DNA from: an uncultured Solirubrobacterales bacterium
Lineage (GTDB): Bacteria; Actinomycetota; Thermoleophilia; Solirubrobacterales; 70-9
Assembly (NCBI GenBank): GCA_963728835.1
Contig: CAVSKZ010000003.1
Span: 90,923-154,922 of the forward strand
Length of the DNA: 64,000 nucleotides
Reading direction: 5' to 3'
Within the stretch, counting starts at the first letter, position 1, and each line of letters begins with the position of its first letter. Shown piece by piece: positions 6,313 to 41,303 of the stretch. The translations under genes were made by a program, and so were the position numbers. The notes under the pieces were generated by a model. That model did no database searches and was not told the DNA's origin. It worked only from the letters and a program-made list of their open reading frames with translations.

Positions 6313-7331
6313 TCCTCGCGATCGAGACCTCCTGCGACGACACCTGCGCGGCGCTGCTCGACGGGCCGCGCGTGCTCGCCAACACGATCTCCTCGCAGGC
6401 GGCTGCCCACGCCCAGTTCGGCGGCGTCGTGCCCGAGGTCGCCTCTCGCCACCACCTGGAGCTGGTGACCCCGGTCGTCGAGGCGGCCCTGGAGGCGGCC
6501 GGCGCCACGCTCGACGACGTCGGCTCGGTGGCCGTCACCGCCGGGCCGGGCCTGATCGGCGCGCTGCTGATCGGGGTGAGCACGGCGAAGGCGATCGCTG
6601 CCCCGCGCCGCCTGCCGCTGATCCCGGTCGACCACCTGCAGGGGCACGTCGCCGCCAACTTCCTCGAGCCCGAGCCGCTGCAGCCGCCCTTTCTCTGCCT
6701 CCTTGCCAGCGGCGGCCACACGCTGCTCGCCGCCGTGCGCGACCACGCCGGACACGAAGTGCTCGGCCAGACCCTCGACGACGCGGCGGGGGAGGCGTTC
6801 GACAAGGTCGCCCGCCTGCTCGGACTCGGCTATCCGGGCGGGCCGGCGCTGGAGAAGCTGGCCCGCGAAGGCGACCCCGCAGCGTTCGAGATGCCGGTGG
6901 CAATGAGCCGCGATCCCGGCCTCGACTTCAGCTTCAGCGGCCTGAAGACCGCCCTCGTCTACCTCTGCCGGGATCTCGGTCCCGACGGCGTGAGCGAGCG
7001 CCGCGCCGACCTGGCGGCCAGCTTCCAGGCCGCCGCCGTCGGCCAGCTCGTCGCCAAGCTCGAGCGCGCCCTGAAGCGCGGAGACTGGCAGGCCGTCGCC
7101 CTGGGCGGGGGCGTGGCCGCGAACGGGCCGCTGCGCGAGTCGGCGCGCGAGGCCTGCGAGCGCAACGGCGCCGCCCTAAAGCTGGTCGGGCTCGAGCTCT
7201 GCACGGACAACGCGGCGATGATCGGCTCCGCCGCTCGCTTCGCGGAGCCGATCCCCTATCCCGACTACCTCGCCTACGACGCCTTCGCCACCCGTAACCA
7301 CCCGCCGACGGGACGAAATCAGCCCGTATGA
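6300..7331 (+). CDS. tsaD: tRNA N6-adenosine threonylcarbamoyltransferase
   Basis: LAIETSCDDTCAALL, VASRHH, GPGLIGALLIG, VDHLQGH and LASGGHT motifs of Kae1/TsaD. Confidence 0.93.
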   Translation: MAGLILAIETSCDDTCAALLDGPRVLANTISSQAAAHAQFGGVVPEVASRHHLELVTPVVEAALEAAGATLDDVGSVAVTAGPGLIGALLIGVSTAKAIAAPRRLPLIPVDHLQGHVAANFLEPEPLQPPFLCLLASGGHTLLAAVRDHAGHEVLGQTLDDAAGEAFDKVARLLGLGYPGGPALEKLAREGDPAAFEMPVAMSRDPGLDFSFSGLKTALVYLCRDLGPDGVSERRADLAASFQAAAVGQLVAKLERALKRGDWQAVALGGGVAANGPLRESAREACERNGAALKLVGLELCTDNAAMIGSAARFAEPIPYPDYLAYDAFATRNHPPTGRNQPV

Positions 7332-7350
7332 GGCGGATTTCGTCCCGTCG
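7306..7350 (+). terminator. 15-bp perfect hairpin spanning the tsaD stop codon
   Basis: CGACGGGACGAAATC (7306-7320) is the exact reverse complement of GATTTCGTCCCGTCG (7336-7350). The 15-nt loop contains the TGA. No U-tract follows. Confidence 0.45.
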
Positions 7351-7359
7351 GCATCGAAG

Positions 7360-7608
7360 ATGACGATCGTCACTGTCTACTCCCGGCCGGAGTGCCACCT
7401 TTGCGCGGAAGCGATCGAGGCGCTCGTCGCCCTGCACGCGGAGGGTTTCCGCTTCGAGCTGCACGAGGTTGACATCGAGAGCGAGGAGCTGCTGCTGCGG
7501 CGCATGCTGGAGAGAATCCCGGTGGTGGAGGTCGACGGCGAGATCGTGTCCGAGCTGCTGCTCGACGAGGCGGCGGTACGGGCGAGGCTCGATAGGGTGG
7601 AGGCGTGA
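7360..7608 (+). CDS. glutaredoxin-like protein (DUF836/YruB type)
   Basis: 82 aa with VYSRPECHLCAEA (CxxC) and IPVVEVDGE, the thioredoxin-fold glutaredoxin 2-like pattern. Confidence 0.7.
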   Translation: MTIVTVYSRPECHLCAEAIEALVALHAEGFRFELHEVDIESEELLLRRMLERIPVVEVDGEIVSELLLDEAAVRARLDRVEA

Positions 7609-8273
7609 GCCCCTTGATCGAAGAGCAGGAGGCGGCCGACGGGCTGATCGTCGAGGGCGAGCGCCTCTCGCTCGGCGTCGCGGCACGGCTCTCGCGTTAC
7701 CTCCAGGTCCTCACCCAGGCCCGCAAGATGGGCCGCGAGACGATCTCCTCGCAGGAACTCTCCGAGTACACGCACATCAACCCGACCCAGATCCGCCGCG
7801 ATCTCTCGGGCTTCGGCAAGTTCGGCAAGCGTGGCGTCGGCTACAACGTCGACTCCCTGGTGGCGGAGGTCCGCAAGATCCTGCGCACCTCGGGCCAGCA
7901 CAACATCGCCCTCTTCGGCGCCGGCAACCTCGGCCAGGCGATCGCCAGCTCCGACATCTTCGCCGACCACGGCTTCCAGATCGTCGCCATGTTCGACGTC
8001 GACAGCGGGGTGGTCGGCACCGAGGTCGGCGACATGCGGGTGCGCGACTTCTCCGAGCTGGAGTCGGTCGTGTCCGAGCAGGAGATCGTCGTCGGGGTGC
8101 TGGCCGTGCCCGCCGCGGCTGCGCAGGGGGTCGCCGACCGGCTGGTCGAGGCCGGGGTGAAGATCATCTTCAACTACTCCGAGCAGCTTCTCCAGGTGCC
8201 GCCGGAGGTGACGGTCCACACCTCGAGCCCCGCTGTCGACCTCCTCTACGCGCTCTACTTCTACCTGACCTGA
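7605..8273 (+). CDS. rex: redox-sensing transcriptional repressor Rex
   Basis: RLSRYLQVL, ISSQELSE, IRRDLSGFGKFGKRGVGY and the LFGAGNLGQA Rossmann motif. Confidence 0.9.
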   Translation: MSPLIEEQEAADGLIVEGERLSLGVAARLSRYLQVLTQARKMGRETISSQELSEYTHINPTQIRRDLSGFGKFGKRGVGYNVDSLVAEVRKILRTSGQHNIALFGAGNLGQAIASSDIFADHGFQIVAMFDVDSGVVGTEVGDMRVRDFSELESVVSEQEIVVGVLAVPAAAAQGVADRLVEAGVKIIFNYSEQLLQVPPEVTVHTSSPAVDLLYALYFYLT

Positions 8274-36618: not shown

Positions 36619-36852
36619 GTGATCAGGCTCGTCTCATTTCGCATCGCGCTATTCGCGGTCCCTGCTGCGGCGGTCGCCGGCCTCATGCTTTTGCTGAACG
36701 GTCTCGATGCAAGCGCGGGTATCGCCGTAGCTGCTTTTGGGGTGGTCGCCGTCGCGACTGGCACCGCACTTGGTTACTTCGCCGAATGCCTCCCTGAGCT
36801 TCCTCGGGTTCGTCGACATCATCGCCTTGCTGGCATTCATCACGGCGACTGA
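36619..36852 (+). CDS. small two-TM membrane protein (hypothetical, weak)
   Basis: 77-aa ORF with two hydrophobic helices and mixed GC3. It lies at the left edge of the low-GC islet. Confidence 0.3.
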   Translation: MIRLVSFRIALFAVPAAAVAGLMLLLNGLDASAGIAVAAFGVVAVATGTALGYFAECLPELPRVRRHHRLAGIHHGD

Positions 36853-36959
36853 GGCGTGGCTGTTGTCGCCGGGCAAAGCAGTCCGGTTGGCAAGTCCGTT
36901 TCGGGCCCACTAAAAAGCCCGAGCGTGAACTCGTCGTCCTCTAGTCTGCGTTCTCGGTT

Positions 36960-38082
36960 ATGCCAGTGAAATTCGGACTGTGGCGAGTCGACGGCGAGTC
37001 AATCGAGCGGGTTCCGACGAGCGGCGTTGCCAGCGAGGAGCGCCTGGAGGACATCCTTGAGGCGCGCATCGATCGGTCGACAGGTCGTCACCGACTTCGG
37101 CAAGCGCATCGACCTGTTGGCTATCGACGGCCAGGGTGACCTGCACGTCATCGAGCTGAAGAAGGACCGAACGCCGAGAGAGGTCGTAGCGCAGGCGCTG
37201 GAGTATGGGTTCTGGGTCCAGGGCCTCTCCTTCGAGGCCATCCGCGAGCTCTACGCGAAGCATCACGACGGAGAGGACTTCGACTCGGCATTCACCAGCC
37301 ACTTCGAGTCTGAAATCCCGGAGGCGGTCAACACAAGCCACCAGCTCGTCGTCGTCGCAACCGGAATGGATGCCAGCACTGAGCAGATCGTCGAGTACGT
37401 GCGCGGCTACGGCGTGCCGATCAATGTCCTGTTCTTCGAGTACCTCGCCGATGGTGGCCGCGAGTATCTGGCACGCTCGTGGCTCACCGACCCCGAGCTT
37501 GAGTCGTCAAGCAAAAGCGGCGGCAAGAAGCAGGCGCCTTGGAACGGCGTTGACTTCTTTGTCGCCGTGGGAGAGAACAACGAGAGGAACTGGGACGACA
37601 TGGTCCGCTACGGCTTTGTATCTGCCGGGCACGGAGACAAATACCGCAAGGCGATGGAGAGCCTCTTCGAGGGCGCCCGTGTTTGGGCTGCGATCCCAAG
37701 TAGCCGCGCCACGGGAGGCGCTCATGGCTATGTCGGGGTGGGCCGGGTGACGGCGCCTGCCGTCGGCGTGAACGACTTCGATGTTGAAGTCGCAGGCGCG
37801 ACTGTGAACGTCCTCCAAGCGCCGTTGGAGGCTACCAACATGGGCTGGGATGCCGATGACCCTCAGTTGTGCGAGTACCTCGTCAGGGTCGAGTGGATGA
37901 ATACTCGCCCCCGGGAGAAGGCGGTGTGGGAGAAGGGCATGTTCGCCAACCAGAATGTCGTGGCGAGGTTGCGGCAGCCGTTTACCTTGCAATGCCTCAA
38001 TGAAGTTTTCGATCTCGAAGAAGGGCTGGCGGACCCAGGGGTCACGCCCACGGCGGATAACAAGGAGTCGTTGAGCACATAG
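36960..38082 (+). CDS. PD-(D/E)XK (NucS/DUF91-like) nuclease fused to an EVE/PUA-like domain; 1-nt indel near 37065-37080
   Basis: MPVKFGLWRVDGESIERV...EERLEDILEARI | IGRQVVTDFGKRIDLLAIDGQGDLHVIELKKDRTPREVVAQALEYGFWV forms the nuclease core. The C-terminal WNGVDFFVAVGE...RYGFVSAGHGDKYRKAMESLFEGARVWAAIP...GYVGVGRVT resembles UPF0310/EVE domains. Confidence 0.65.
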
Positions 38083-38121
38083 CGCAGAGCCCCTGCCAAT
38101 CTGATTCCGCTTGCTGCTGCC

Positions 38122-38163
38122 ATGCCCGAGGAGGACTCGAACCCCCGACACGCGGATTACGAT
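38122..38163 (-). repeat. duplicated 3' half of tRNA-Met (att remnant)
   Basis: It aligns to 41229-41271 with 40 identical positions of 43 columns (one gap), counted by eye, from the anticodon loop to the acceptor end. No 5' half is present, so it is not a functional tRNA. Confidence 0.75.
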
Positions 38164-38290
38164 GGGCGACACGCAGGGGGTCTGACGGTTCTGGGAGCGG
38201 CTCTCAGCACGCCCCCCGGTTGTCGGGAATTCGCGCAAATCGGGTATTCGCGGTCGTAGGCCGTCCGGTCGAAGGGCTAGTCTCGCCCAG

Positions 38291-38515
38291 ATGAATGAGG
38301 CGAGCAGCAGCGAAGTCGAGAAGGTTCTTCTCTTCGTATCGGATGCGCGCGACCGGGCTGGCAAAGCGCGGGCTCGGCTACAGGCGGACGGTGCCGACCA
38401 GCATTTGATCGAGGCCTTGGAGCGCGCCGAGGCGTCGCTGGCCGAGACTCACCGCGACCTCATGCAGGGCACCTACTTCGCGGTGCCACGGCGCGAAAAG
38501 CAGCTCGCTCTCTAG
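38291..38515 (+). CDS. hypothetical 74-aa helical protein upstream of the MmeI-like gene
   Basis: The ORF ends 6 nt before the GTG of the MmeI-like gene. No motif recognised. Confidence 0.4.
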   Translation: MNEASSSEVEKVLLFVSDARDRAGKARARLQADGADQHLIEALERAEASLAETHRDLMQGTYFAVPRREKQLAL

Positions 38516-38521
38516 AAAGTC

Positions 38522-41270
38522 GTGTTGATCACCGGCGAGGAGATTCGCCGTCGCCTGACCGGGTTCGTCGAGAAGTGGTCGTCCTACCAGGGCTCCGAGC
38601 GCGCCGAGGCCCAAACCTTCCTCAACGAGCTTTTCGGCTGCTTTGGCACCGACCGTCAGGAGGTCGCCCGCTTCGAGGACCCTCAGCACAGAAGGTTCCT
38701 TGACCTGATCTGGGACCGTGTCTGCATCGTCGAGATGAAGCGGCCCAGCGAGGCTCAAAGGCTCGATCAGCATCGCCCTCAGGCGTTCGGCTATTGGCGA
38801 AATGCGGCCGACCCCGATCGCAACCTCCCGGCGCCCAGATGGCTCGTCCTCTGCGCATTCAGGCGATTCGAGATCTGGGAGCCAGGGTCGTTTCCCAATG
38901 AGCCACGAGCTGAATTCGAGCTTGGCGAACTTCCCGACCGACTCGACTCACTTCTGTTCTTGGCCGGCAGAGAACCCGTTTTCCTGTCGTTTCAGGAGGC
39001 GGTGACTCGCGAAGCGGTCAAGCATGTGACGGACCTTTACGCGGGGCTGCGCGAGCGTCGTGCGGCTGACTCAGATGTCTTGCGACTTCGTCCTGCAGAG
39101 CGTCTGGTGCATGTTCGCCGAGGACCTCGGCCAGCTCGAAGGCCATCTCTATACCCGTATCGTCGACGAGCTTCTGGCCAATCCGCAGCGATCGAGCGCG
39201 GATGACCTGGGTGGTCTATTTCGATGGCTCAATACGCCAGGGAACCGGCCCGACGGGGGGTTCTACGCCGAGACCCGATATGTGAACGGCGGACTTTTCG
39301 CTCATCCGGCTTTGGTTCATCTGGCGTCCGAGGAGTTGGAGCAGCTTCGCTCTGCCTGCGAGTTCAACTGGAAGCGCGTCGAGCCCCACATCTTCGGGTC
39401 GCTCCTGGAGGGGGCGCTTGGCCGAGAGTCCCAATGGATTCTCGGTGCCCACTACACGCACACGGTGGACATCATGAAGGTCATCGGTCCAAGCATCGTC
39501 GTTCCCTGGCGTGAGCGAATCGAGAACGCGGATACCGTCCGGCAGGCTCAGCAGCTTCAAAACGAGTTGCTCAACTACGTGGTACTCGATCCGGCCTGCG
39601 GCTCCGGGAATTTCCTCTACATCGCCTACCGCGAGTTGCGCCAGATCGAGAAGAGACTGAGGGTGCGGGAGCGGGAGCTGCGCCGCGAGTCCGGCATGCC
39701 CGACGCCGACGCGCTGAGTGCCTTCTTTCCGCTGCGGAATATTGCGGGGATTGAGATCAACGCTTTCGCCGTGGCGCTTGCGCGGGTCACGCTGTGGATG
39801 GGGCACAAGCTTGCGGTCGATGAACTTGATCTAGCCGAGTCCACCCTGCCGCTTGAGGATCTCGGCGGAATTCAGGCCGGCGATGCGCTCAGGATGCCTT
39901 GGCCGAGATGTGACGTAATCGTCAGTAATCCACCGTTCCACGGAGATCGAAACCTTCGTGGACTGCTCGGTGACGATTACGTCGAGTGGCTCAAAGAGGA
40001 GTTCGGCTGTGGCGTCAAAGATCACTGTGTCTACTGGTTTCGCATGGCGCAGGATCATCTGGAGCCTGGGCAGAGGGCTGGGATGGTCGGCACCAACTCG
40101 ATCAGCCAGAACCGAGCGCGGGGCGCGAGCCTCAACTACATCGTCGAATCCGGCGGGGTCATCATCGACGCCATCAGCTCGCAGGATTGGCCCGGGGGGG
40201 CAAACGTCGACGTCAGCATCGTCAACTGGATCAAGGGTCCTCTTTCGAACGAGCCACAGCGGGTTCTGGACGAGCGGCACGTCGATGGAATCGACACCGC
40301 CCTTCGGTCGTCGACGATTCCAGTTGCCGATGTTCCTCCGCTCAGCGCTAATCGGAACTTCGCGTTCCAGGGTTTCCTGCCCGGAGCAAAGTTCGACATT
40401 CCGGGTGAGGTGGCAGAGGAGCTGCTCGGACTGACGGATGCCGCGTACTCCGACGTCGTCTTGCCGTACCTGGATGGCCGAGACATTGCGCGGACGGTGG
40501 ATCAGCGGCCGACCCGCTACACGATTGACTTCGCACAGATGGAGCTGGAGGAAGCAATGCGCTACCCGGCGGCCCTTGAGATCGTCAGGGACCAGGCGAA
40601 GGACGCCAGGGAGTCGAGCAACTCCTACTCTCGAAATCCGCGCTGGTGGCAGTTTCTCTGGCCCCGGCCGGATTTCCGAGAGCGTGCGGCGGGTCTTCAG
40701 CGCTTTATTGCAGGCTCGGCCACAGCTAAGCGCATTTTCTTTATCTGGTGCGATCTGGGCTGGCGTCCGAGCAACAGCACCAACATCTTTGCCTTCGATT
40801 CCGATTACGCAATTGCTGTCTTGAGCTCGGCGATACATACGGAATGGGCGGGGGGACGTTCATCCACGCTTGAGGATCGCATCCGTTACACACCCAGCTC
40901 CGCATTCGAGACGTTTCCTTGGCCGTCCGTAGACGCGACCGAAGCCGGCGCCATCGGAGATGCCGGGCGGGCACTGCTTGCTCGACGCAGTGAGATCTGC
41001 AACGAAGCCGAGATCGGCCTCAACGAGCTTTACAACCGGCACGAGGAAGGCGCCTGGTCTGATTTGGGCGAATTGCATCGCCAGCTTGACCAGGCCGTGT
41101 TGAGCGCCTATGGCTGGAGTGATATCGGCGTCGATGACAACGTTGCCGTCAATCAGAGGCTCTTTGCCCTAAGCCGCGCGATTCAAGGCGGCCATGTCGA
41201 ATATGCCGGGCCGAACGCTGCCAATGCGATGCCGGAGGAGGGACTCGAACCCCCGACACGCGGATTATGA
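38522..41270 (+). CDS. MmeI-family type IIL restriction-modification enzyme (endonuclease + N6-adenine methyltransferase + TRD); 1-nt indel near 39080-39086
   Basis: N-terminal D-x9-E-x-K (DLIWDRVCIVEMK), helical spacer (CMFAEDLG), MTase motif I VLDPACGSGNFL and motif IV VSNPPF, followed by a long TRD/C-terminal region. The last codons read through the tRNA 3' half. The track splits it into 38522..39205 and 39060..41270. Confidence 0.8.
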
Positions 41271-41303
41271 TTCCGCTGCTCTAACCAGCTGAGCTACTCC
41301 GGC
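41230..41303 (-). tRNA. tRNA-Met (anticodon CAT), elongator type (a tRNA-Ile2 identity cannot be excluded)
   Basis: Hand-folded: acceptor GCCGGAG/CTCCGGC, D arm GCTC-AGCTGGTTA-GAGC, anticodon stem GCGGA/TCCGC with loop AT-CAT-AA, T arm GGGGG-TTCGAGT-CCCTC, discriminator A. It lacks initiator features. Confidence 0.88.

Follow-up and report, generated by a model that had tools for sequence, protein, structure and literature searches.

We consider it probable that the gene at positions 36960 to 38082 of the window (the whole 64,000-nucleotide stretch of DNA analysed here, from an uncultured Solirubrobacterales bacterium) is a decayed copy of the defence candidate PDC-S11, and that the intact form of this gene encodes a modification-dependent, type IV-like restriction nuclease coupled to a reader domain. 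The protein, which we call NucS-EVE, combines an N-terminal PD-(D/E)XK nuclease of the NucS type with a C-terminal domain predicted to adopt a PUA-like fold of the EVE/YTH kind. That the reading of modified bases is coupled to DNA cleavage is suggested by fold, fusion partners and genomic context. Our analysis adds four elements to the first reading: the window copy is very probably a pseudogene, in an island that is eroding; its family is that of PDC-S11, with an architecture that had been predicted before; according to structure models, the C-terminal domain represents an unannotated and divergent EVE/YTH-like family, which GIY-YIG and TIR effectors also possess; and the gene is repeatedly embedded in type I restriction-modification (R-M) operons. 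The features of the locus and its surroundings are the following:

36900..36944, + strand: remnant of an upstream HTH (HigA-like antitoxin) gene, last 14 codons and stop, FGPTKKPERELVVL* (translation compared with locus L078; DNA alignment A6)
36960..37073, + strand: 5' part of the NucS-EVE gene, frame A, corresponding to residues 1-38 of the intact protein, with the N-terminal beta-hairpin and the first helix (open reading frame list, alignment, model)
37073..37074, + strand: deletion junction, 29 nt lost (DNA alignment A4, protein alignment A2)
37072..37560, + strand: remaining NucS_C-like PD-(D/E)XK nuclease domain followed by a low-confidence linker, frame B, with catalytic D (IDLLAID), E-x-K (IELKK) and Q (VAQALEY)
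37561..38082, + strand: EVE/YTH-like PUA-fold domain, short unstructured tail and stop codon (WNG...RNWDD...YGFVSAGHG...GYVGVGRV...VEW...FANQN)
38104..38171, - strand: partial 3' copy of tRNA-Met, an att-like direct repeat (alignment to the tRNA gene, BLAST to the tRNA-Met of related loci)
38522..41270, + strand: MmeI-family type IIL R-M gene in two overlapping ORFs, 38522-39205 and 39060-41270 (Pfam; context gene)
41230..41303, - strand: intact tRNA-Met (CAT), integration site of islands (ARAGORN)

The coding sequence of the window copy is broken near its 5' end. Frame A opens with the ATG at 36960 and reads MPVKFGLWRVDGES...EARID in the open reading frame list and the sequence; followed from this ATG, it gives MPVKFGLWRVDGESIERVPTSGVASEERLEDILEARID and thereafter unrelated sequence. 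Frame B (IGRQVVTDFGKRIDLLAID...) extends from about 37072, where its opening reads IGRQVVTDFGKRIDLLAIDGQGDLHVIELKKDRTPREVVAQALEYGFW..., to the TAG at 38080-38082. In DNA alignment A4, ACATCCTCGGCTTGGGCAACCTGTTCCAG or a sequence very similar to it is present in five Solirubrobacterales orthologs between the nucleotides corresponding to 37073 and 37074, and protein alignment A2 shows that the window protein is missing the nine residues ILGLGNLFQ, which are nearly invariant in 11 intact homologs. Together, the 29 extra nucleotides of the orthologs and the nine lost residues imply that 29 nt were deleted at the break and that the frame was thereby shifted. The first-pass annotation of this DNA had advised joining the two frames at about 37070: a break does exist there, though alignment A4 identifies it as this deletion and not as a simple frameshift. 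All sequence motifs quoted in that annotation were recovered from the window translations (open reading frame list and sequence). In the AlphaFold2 model, the lost segment corresponds to the end of helix 37-40 and the beginning of strand 46-53, where the nuclease core starts. The longest downstream ORF begins with a TTG at 37027 and has 351 aa; its product would be devoid of the N-terminal hairpin and first helix. Because the deletion both strips conserved residues and shifts the frame, the window copy is most likely a pseudogene.

Intact relatives of this gene form a large family that has no Pfam assignment. Once repaired, the window protein shares 88-89% identity with the best intact proteins, which are 365-383 aa long (E down to 1e-220), a similarity far above chance. 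Of 8000 candidates scored against the joined protein, 3259 reached E<=1e-3; the best relatives are all labelled 'hypothetical' and lack precomputed Pfam domains. With the intact ortholog P0001 as query, phmmer returned 3588 representatives from the whole library at E<=1e-3, 378 of them at E<=1e-30. Conservation within Solirubrobacterales is 70-94%, and the 60 diverse full-length members that make up alignment A3 share 31-68% identity with P0001. Genome scans located carriers in Solirubrobacterales, other Actinomycetota, Chloroflexota, Acidobacteriota, Bacillota (Paenibacillus, Priestia), Deinococcus, Thermodesulfobacteriota and one gammaproteobacterium. Homologs also occur on 48 plasmid records, 31 of them conjugative and some haloarchaeal, while a tblastn search for the family in 50,697 phage records gave no match.

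The family was compared with catalogued defence systems. P0001 matches the PADLOC PDC-S11 model PDLC04916 over practically its full length (residues 1-362 on positions 1-356 of 358, E=2e-137), and further full-length matches to this model were obtained for three divergent members, P0124 (2.3e-154), P0136 (8.9e-124) and P0259 (1.8e-83). As judged from these profile matches, the NucS-EVE family is PDC-S11 and, since the match is end to end, it is already listed as a single-gene defence candidate. PDC-S11 is a computational candidate of PADLOC-DB v2, consisting of one gene that is intact in its PDC-S11 relatives whereas the window copy is broken. Models PDLC04909, 04910 and 04913 of the same entry have only the NucS-like region in common with our family, so the PDC-S11 label covers several C-terminal domains. 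The PDC-S11 of E. coli mentioned in a 2026 preprint probably belongs to a different subgroup, since a blastn search of E. coli genomes with the Providencia homolog produced no match.

Assignment of the N-terminal half to the NucS nucleases rests on several profile and structure comparisons. Pfam NucS_C (PF01939) is matched in 60/60 family members (best E=6.4e-11), though P0001 itself stays below the cut-off of 24 bits with a score of 14.2 (E=0.045); the sole NCBIfam match is to the NucS equivalog, at 14.9 bits against a cut-off of 216. A Pfam scan of the window's own two frames gave no match, and neither did a PDB sequence search with the profile of close homologs (A2). The family profile, by comparison, matches EndoMS (5gke) and aligns its D-ExK-Q motif with that of Pyrococcus abyssi NucS (2vld, E=9.8e-9): iDLLaiD, viELK and aQ of the family correspond to VDVMGVD, ELK and SQ. 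Foldseek searches of the PDB associate the N-terminal half of the model with EndoMS, NucS and the Shedu nuclease SduA. Across the 60 members of A3, D61 and E75 do not vary, and K77, Q88 and Y92 each show a conservation of 90% or more; the corresponding motifs, IDLLAID, IELKK and VAQALEY, are all present in window frame B. The N-terminal NucS-type nuclease proposed at first reading is supported by the 2vld and Foldseek matches, and its catalytic D and E-x-K residues persist in a proper alignment. The stretch LVVVATGMD...INVLFFEY, which had been taken for a separate accessory module, is instead the second half of the NucS_C nuclease fold; in the model it comprises strand 137-146, helix 148-159 and the strands at 164-184. 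Homology in the nuclease domain and the D-ExK-Q motif thus relate the family to NucS/EndoMS (2vld, 5gke), from which it differs by its EVE-like C-terminus, by an island and plasmid lifestyle, and by the lack of the NucS N-terminal domain: the profile scan did not find the NucS_N dimerisation and DNA-binding domain in the family, and only about 20 residues, a single beta-hairpin, precede the nuclease domain in the model.

The full-length AlphaFold2 model built with A3 (mean pLDDT 91.3) comprises two well-defined domains separated by a low-confidence linker at residues 193-199, so that the intact protein of about 360-380 aa consists of a hairpin, the nuclease (about 25-185), a flexible linker and a PUA-fold domain (about 205-360). 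Foldseek matches to the C-terminal half of this model were 2p5d, 1wmm/2hd9, 2g2x, 2eve, 2ar1, 1zce, the THYN1-5mC DNA structure 5j3e and YTH domains. When residues 200-365 were modelled separately (pLDDT 95.3, pTM 0.89), all of the top 50 PDB matches were EVE or YTH structures, the best being MJECL36 (2p5d, E=7e-5) and PH1033 (1wmm, TM 0.53 normalised on the query and 0.61 on the target). The similarity is moderate, with TM values around 0.5: target-normalised scores of the best matches range from about 0.45 to 0.61, with probabilities up to 1.0, and the YTH matches include m6A RNA structures. In Pfam, EVE (PF01878) is reached below threshold in 6 of the 34 C-terminal domains scanned (best E=0.003; none for the P0001 domain) and is the only family matched by more than one of them; a comparison of the C-domain profile (A5) with PDB sequences returned chance matches only. 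Because the Foldseek matches are all EVE or YTH and the Pfam EVE signal, albeit weak, recurs, we place the domain in the EVE/YTH branch of the PUA-like fold, as a divergent member by its predicted structure and not a Pfam EVE domain by score. The likeness to EVE domains noted at first sight thus holds for the predicted fold, with the Pfam EVE score staying below threshold. W204, W221, F229, Y267 and W322, candidate residues for a base pocket, are invariant or nearly so in A3.

Both halves of the protein are found in other combinations. A search with a profile of the C-terminal domain alone collected 416 proteins: many are about 272 aa long and carry an N-terminal LEM-3-like GIY-YIG nuclease (PF22945; within P0339-P0388), and others consist of the domain alone (about 150 aa). 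In P0236 (476 aa), the domain is attached to an N-terminal TIR domain. The NucS-like domain, for its part, occurs with DUF4268 in a paralogous architecture (P0256) and with other, unassigned C-termini, P0146 adding a DUF5655. A second protein with a NucS-like N-terminal domain and a DUF4268 C-terminal domain, besides P0256, is encoded at 4714-5829 of L082, as the direct neighbour of a NucS-EVE gene; this locus lies on a haloarchaeal plasmid, next to BREX. Sharing of a reader-like domain in this manner, among three unrelated effector types, is typical of a portable sensor or targeting module.

To describe the genomic context of the family, neighbouring ORFs were clustered for 82 loci. Type I R-M components are prominent: HsdM adjoins the gene in 13/82 loci, each time accompanied by hsdS, hsdR or both from a type I system, HsdS in 12/82, and two families of HsdR in 7/82 and 4/82. 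Altogether, type I R-M genes occur less than 5 kb away in 17/82 loci (21%) and are absent from that range in 65/82; by a rough estimate, this linkage would be far above that of a random gene. Other recurrent neighbours are tyrosine integrases (8/82), TrwC relaxases (7/82), IS66 transposases (4/82), Dcm-like C5 methyltransferases (4/82) and YhcG/DUF1016 nucleases (4/82). No methyltransferase is a constant neighbour among the 82 loci. In L048 and L052, the NucS-EVE gene (X) is inserted into a type I operon in the order hsdM-hsdS-X-hsdR, with gaps of 3-13 nt on either side of X; in L054 and L063 this order is kept, but a small additional ORF precedes hsdR, L051 has hsdM-hsdS-X, and L041 X-hsdR-hsdS-hsdM with an overlap. 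The X proteins of R-M-linked loci are 38-93% identical to one another, hence the linkage recurs in several lineages. The NucS-EVE gene of L044 is likewise embedded in or abutting a type I R-M operon, and such loci span several phyla. On a haloarchaeal plasmid, its neighbours are the BREX genes brxL/pglZ together with genes for a restriction endonuclease and a DUF4268 protein, and on a Deinococcus plasmid they are SNF2 and type I genes; further annotated neighbours are an HNH endonuclease and type I R-M. The defence role initially proposed from gene context is thus supported by the PDC-S11 entry of PADLOC, by the islands and plasmids that carry the gene and by its R-M neighbours.

In the window, the gene lies at a tRNA-Met hotspot. 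The intact tRNA-Met and its partial 3' copy bracket a 3.1-kb islet that contains the MmeI gene and is without integrase; the NucS-EVE gene is located just outside this islet, abutting the tRNA fragment. The first MmeI ORF (38522-39205) contains MmeI_N and the second (39060-41270) MmeI_hel, MmeI_Mtase and MmeI_TRD (the latter with 26.4 bits for a 27-bit cut-off); the MmeI_C domain was not detected in this gene with Pfam, and the split corresponds to an apparent 1-nt frameshift near 39075-39080. The last 40 or so nucleotides of the MmeI gene overlap the 3' end of the tRNA-Met. A 74-aa ORF without Pfam match (38291-38515, + strand) stops 6 nt before the MmeI-like gene and may encode a small regulator or controller protein of this R-M gene.

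Related loci help to reconstruct the island. The same tRNA-Met flanks the NucS-EVE gene in L001, L002, L006 and L078, and L013 has a tRNA-Met in its vicinity. The gene of L006 directly abuts an intact tRNA-Met, and those of L001, L002 and L078 reside within islands of 6-8.5 kb between tRNA-Met and a distal tRNA fragment. The L078 island includes an integrase fragment, an SLFN_AlbA_2 gene and, just upstream of the NucS-EVE gene, a Gp49/HTH (HigBA-like) pair at 7152-7990, whose intact HTH gene has 112 aa and ends in ...FGPTEKPERELVVL*. The window lacks the integrase and other island genes kept in L078, L001 and L002, and the HTH remnant at 36900-36944, compared with that intact gene, marks the deletion of the left part of an ancestral island. 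Upstream of it, a small hydrophobic ORF of 77 aa (36619-36852, + strand) is conserved at the island boundary in L078 (2497-2715) and L001, and appears to be part of the core-genome flank of the tRNA-Met hotspot.

The first-pass annotation had placed the gene beside a type IIL R-M enzyme in a tRNA-linked islet. The MmeI neighbour and the tRNA-Met are confirmed, but we reject a common islet for the two genes: they are separated by the tRNA-Met 3' repeat, and both L006 and L002 have NucS-EVE next to the tRNA with no MmeI. NucS-EVE belongs to an older, eroded island. With its two tRNA-Met repeats, the region looks like a tandem accretion of islands at one tRNA, and its history may have been as follows: an old tRNA-Met island with NucS-EVE lost its left part, the gene then suffered the 29-nt deletion, and the MmeI islet integrated later into the same tRNA-Met. 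Two defence genes would then be decaying at a single tRNA-Met hotspot.

In PvuRts1I and AbaSI, the nuclease is N-terminal and the reader C-terminal. NucS-EVE resembles these enzymes and the MspJI family in that a single polypeptide unites a nuclease with a reader of the PUA superfamily, and differs from them in its nuclease subfamily and in its reader, theirs being SRA-like and not EVE/YTH-like; MspJI gave a weak Foldseek match (E=0.11). A nuclease and a putative EVE/YTH-like reader in one protein, encoded in defence islands, is a trait of type IV restriction that is present in this family. EVE-PD(D/E)XK and EVE-GIY-YIG fusions have been predicted to be type IV restriction endonucleases, and an association of EVE with type I R-M was noted in the same study (Bell, Wolf and Koonin 2020, PMC7641849), in agreement with the first-pass remark that published comparative analyses contain EVE-like readers fused to nucleases. 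NucS-EVE has traits of that EVE-PD(D/E)XK class, a predicted PUA/EVE reader with a PD-(D/E)XK nuclease, defence contexts and a type I R-M link, except that its reader has diverged too far to reach the Pfam EVE threshold and its nuclease is specifically NucS_C; the architecture class had thus been predicted before this analysis, the likeness being one of architecture. The enzymes examined by Lutz et al. 2019 (PMC6765204) were mainly PUA-HNH fusions, which cut 5mC/5hmC DNA or, for ScoA3V, 6mA DNA; the only PUA-PD(D/E)XK case in that study, YenY4I, has a different architecture. END-Mag, described in a preprint (PMC12191111), restricts phages with modified guanine through a NucS-like PD-DExK nuclease and an inactive EndoIII/Ogg1-like sensor. 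It shares with NucS-EVE the pairing of a NucS-like nuclease, alike by description, with a C-terminal base-reading sensor, putative in NucS-EVE; the sensor of END-Mag is HhH glycosylase-like, that of NucS-EVE PUA-like.

Fold, fusion partners and context suggest how an intact NucS-EVE protein might act. The PUA-like domain would bind invading DNA and accommodate a flipped modified base in a conserved pocket, and base binding would tether or activate the nuclease domain, leading to a cut nearby. Restriction of this type IV-like kind would need no methyltransferase of its own and could complement neighbouring R-M systems from which modified phages escape. In some hosts, simple m6A or 5mC targeting is argued against because HsdM or a Dcm-like C5-cytosine methyltransferase (4 loci) adjoins the gene. 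In the window, the gene would have been inactivated by the 29-nt deletion in the first helix and strand of the nuclease core, as part of a wider erosion of the tRNA-Met island in which the upstream gene was truncated, the MmeI islet was inserted later and the MmeI gene was split.

The decay itself could be questioned. Many close relatives come from long-read metagenome bins, which are indel-prone, and an apparent 1-nt frameshift is likewise seen in the adjacent MmeI gene: the 29-nt gap could then be an assembly or consensus error, and the organism would possess an intact gene and a working NucS-EVE enzyme. We regard this as unlikely, for a clean loss of 29 nt is untypical of homopolymer errors, and the truncated HTH gene and the absence of the integrase and other genes of the L078, L001 and L002 islands are independent signs of decay. 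As to function, homology of the nuclease domain with NucS and the 70-94% conservation within Solirubrobacterales could designate a housekeeping, NucS/EndoMS-like paralog acting in mismatch repair. This role is highly improbable and we reject it, given the missing NucS_N domain, a patchy distribution across phyla and archaeal plasmids, variable genomic positions in integrase and tRNA islands and the decay of the gene in the window.

The nature of the substrate calls for a more careful discussion. EVE and YTH relatives also bind modified RNA, as illustrated by the YTH-m6A RNA structures among our matches, and this counts against a DNA reader. NucS-EVE could accordingly be a nuclease that targets RNA or acts in abortive infection, or else a guard linked to type I R-M and comparable to PrrC in the EcoprrI operon, its reader recognising a modified RNA base, for instance in tRNA; the position of the gene between hsdS and hsdR in several lineages and the fusion of the same domain to a TIR effector, typical of abortive infection, would suit such a function. 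However, characterised NucS/EndoMS members cut DNA (5gke is a DNA complex), the C-terminal domain is also paired with GIY-YIG DNA nucleases, and 65 of the 82 loci have no type I R-M within 5 kb, so that we give an RNA-directed or guard function a small probability only. Restriction of modified DNA is the reading we retain. A more specific version of it can be put forward, tentatively and as something we would rather doubt than assert: the C-terminal domain may be a previously undefined PUA-like sensor family for one phage DNA hypermodification, a plug-in that triggers three or more unrelated effectors (a nuclease of the NucS type, a GIY-YIG nuclease and a TIR NADase), and NucS-EVE may be functionally coupled to type I R-M operons, in which it would provide a built-in second barrier to phages that evade type I restriction through their DNA modifications.

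Apart from illustrating the turnover of defence islands, with two decaying defence genes at one tRNA-Met hotspot, the window copy is of little consequence. The family to which it belongs, however, counts thousands of members, spread over bacterial phyla and the plasmids of haloarchaea. Should the C-terminal domain of this family recognise a defined DNA modification, the toolbox of type IV restriction would gain a new reader/nuclease pair, with a use in epigenetic mapping, and the reading of modified DNA would explain why the gene has repeatedly been built into type I R-M operons.
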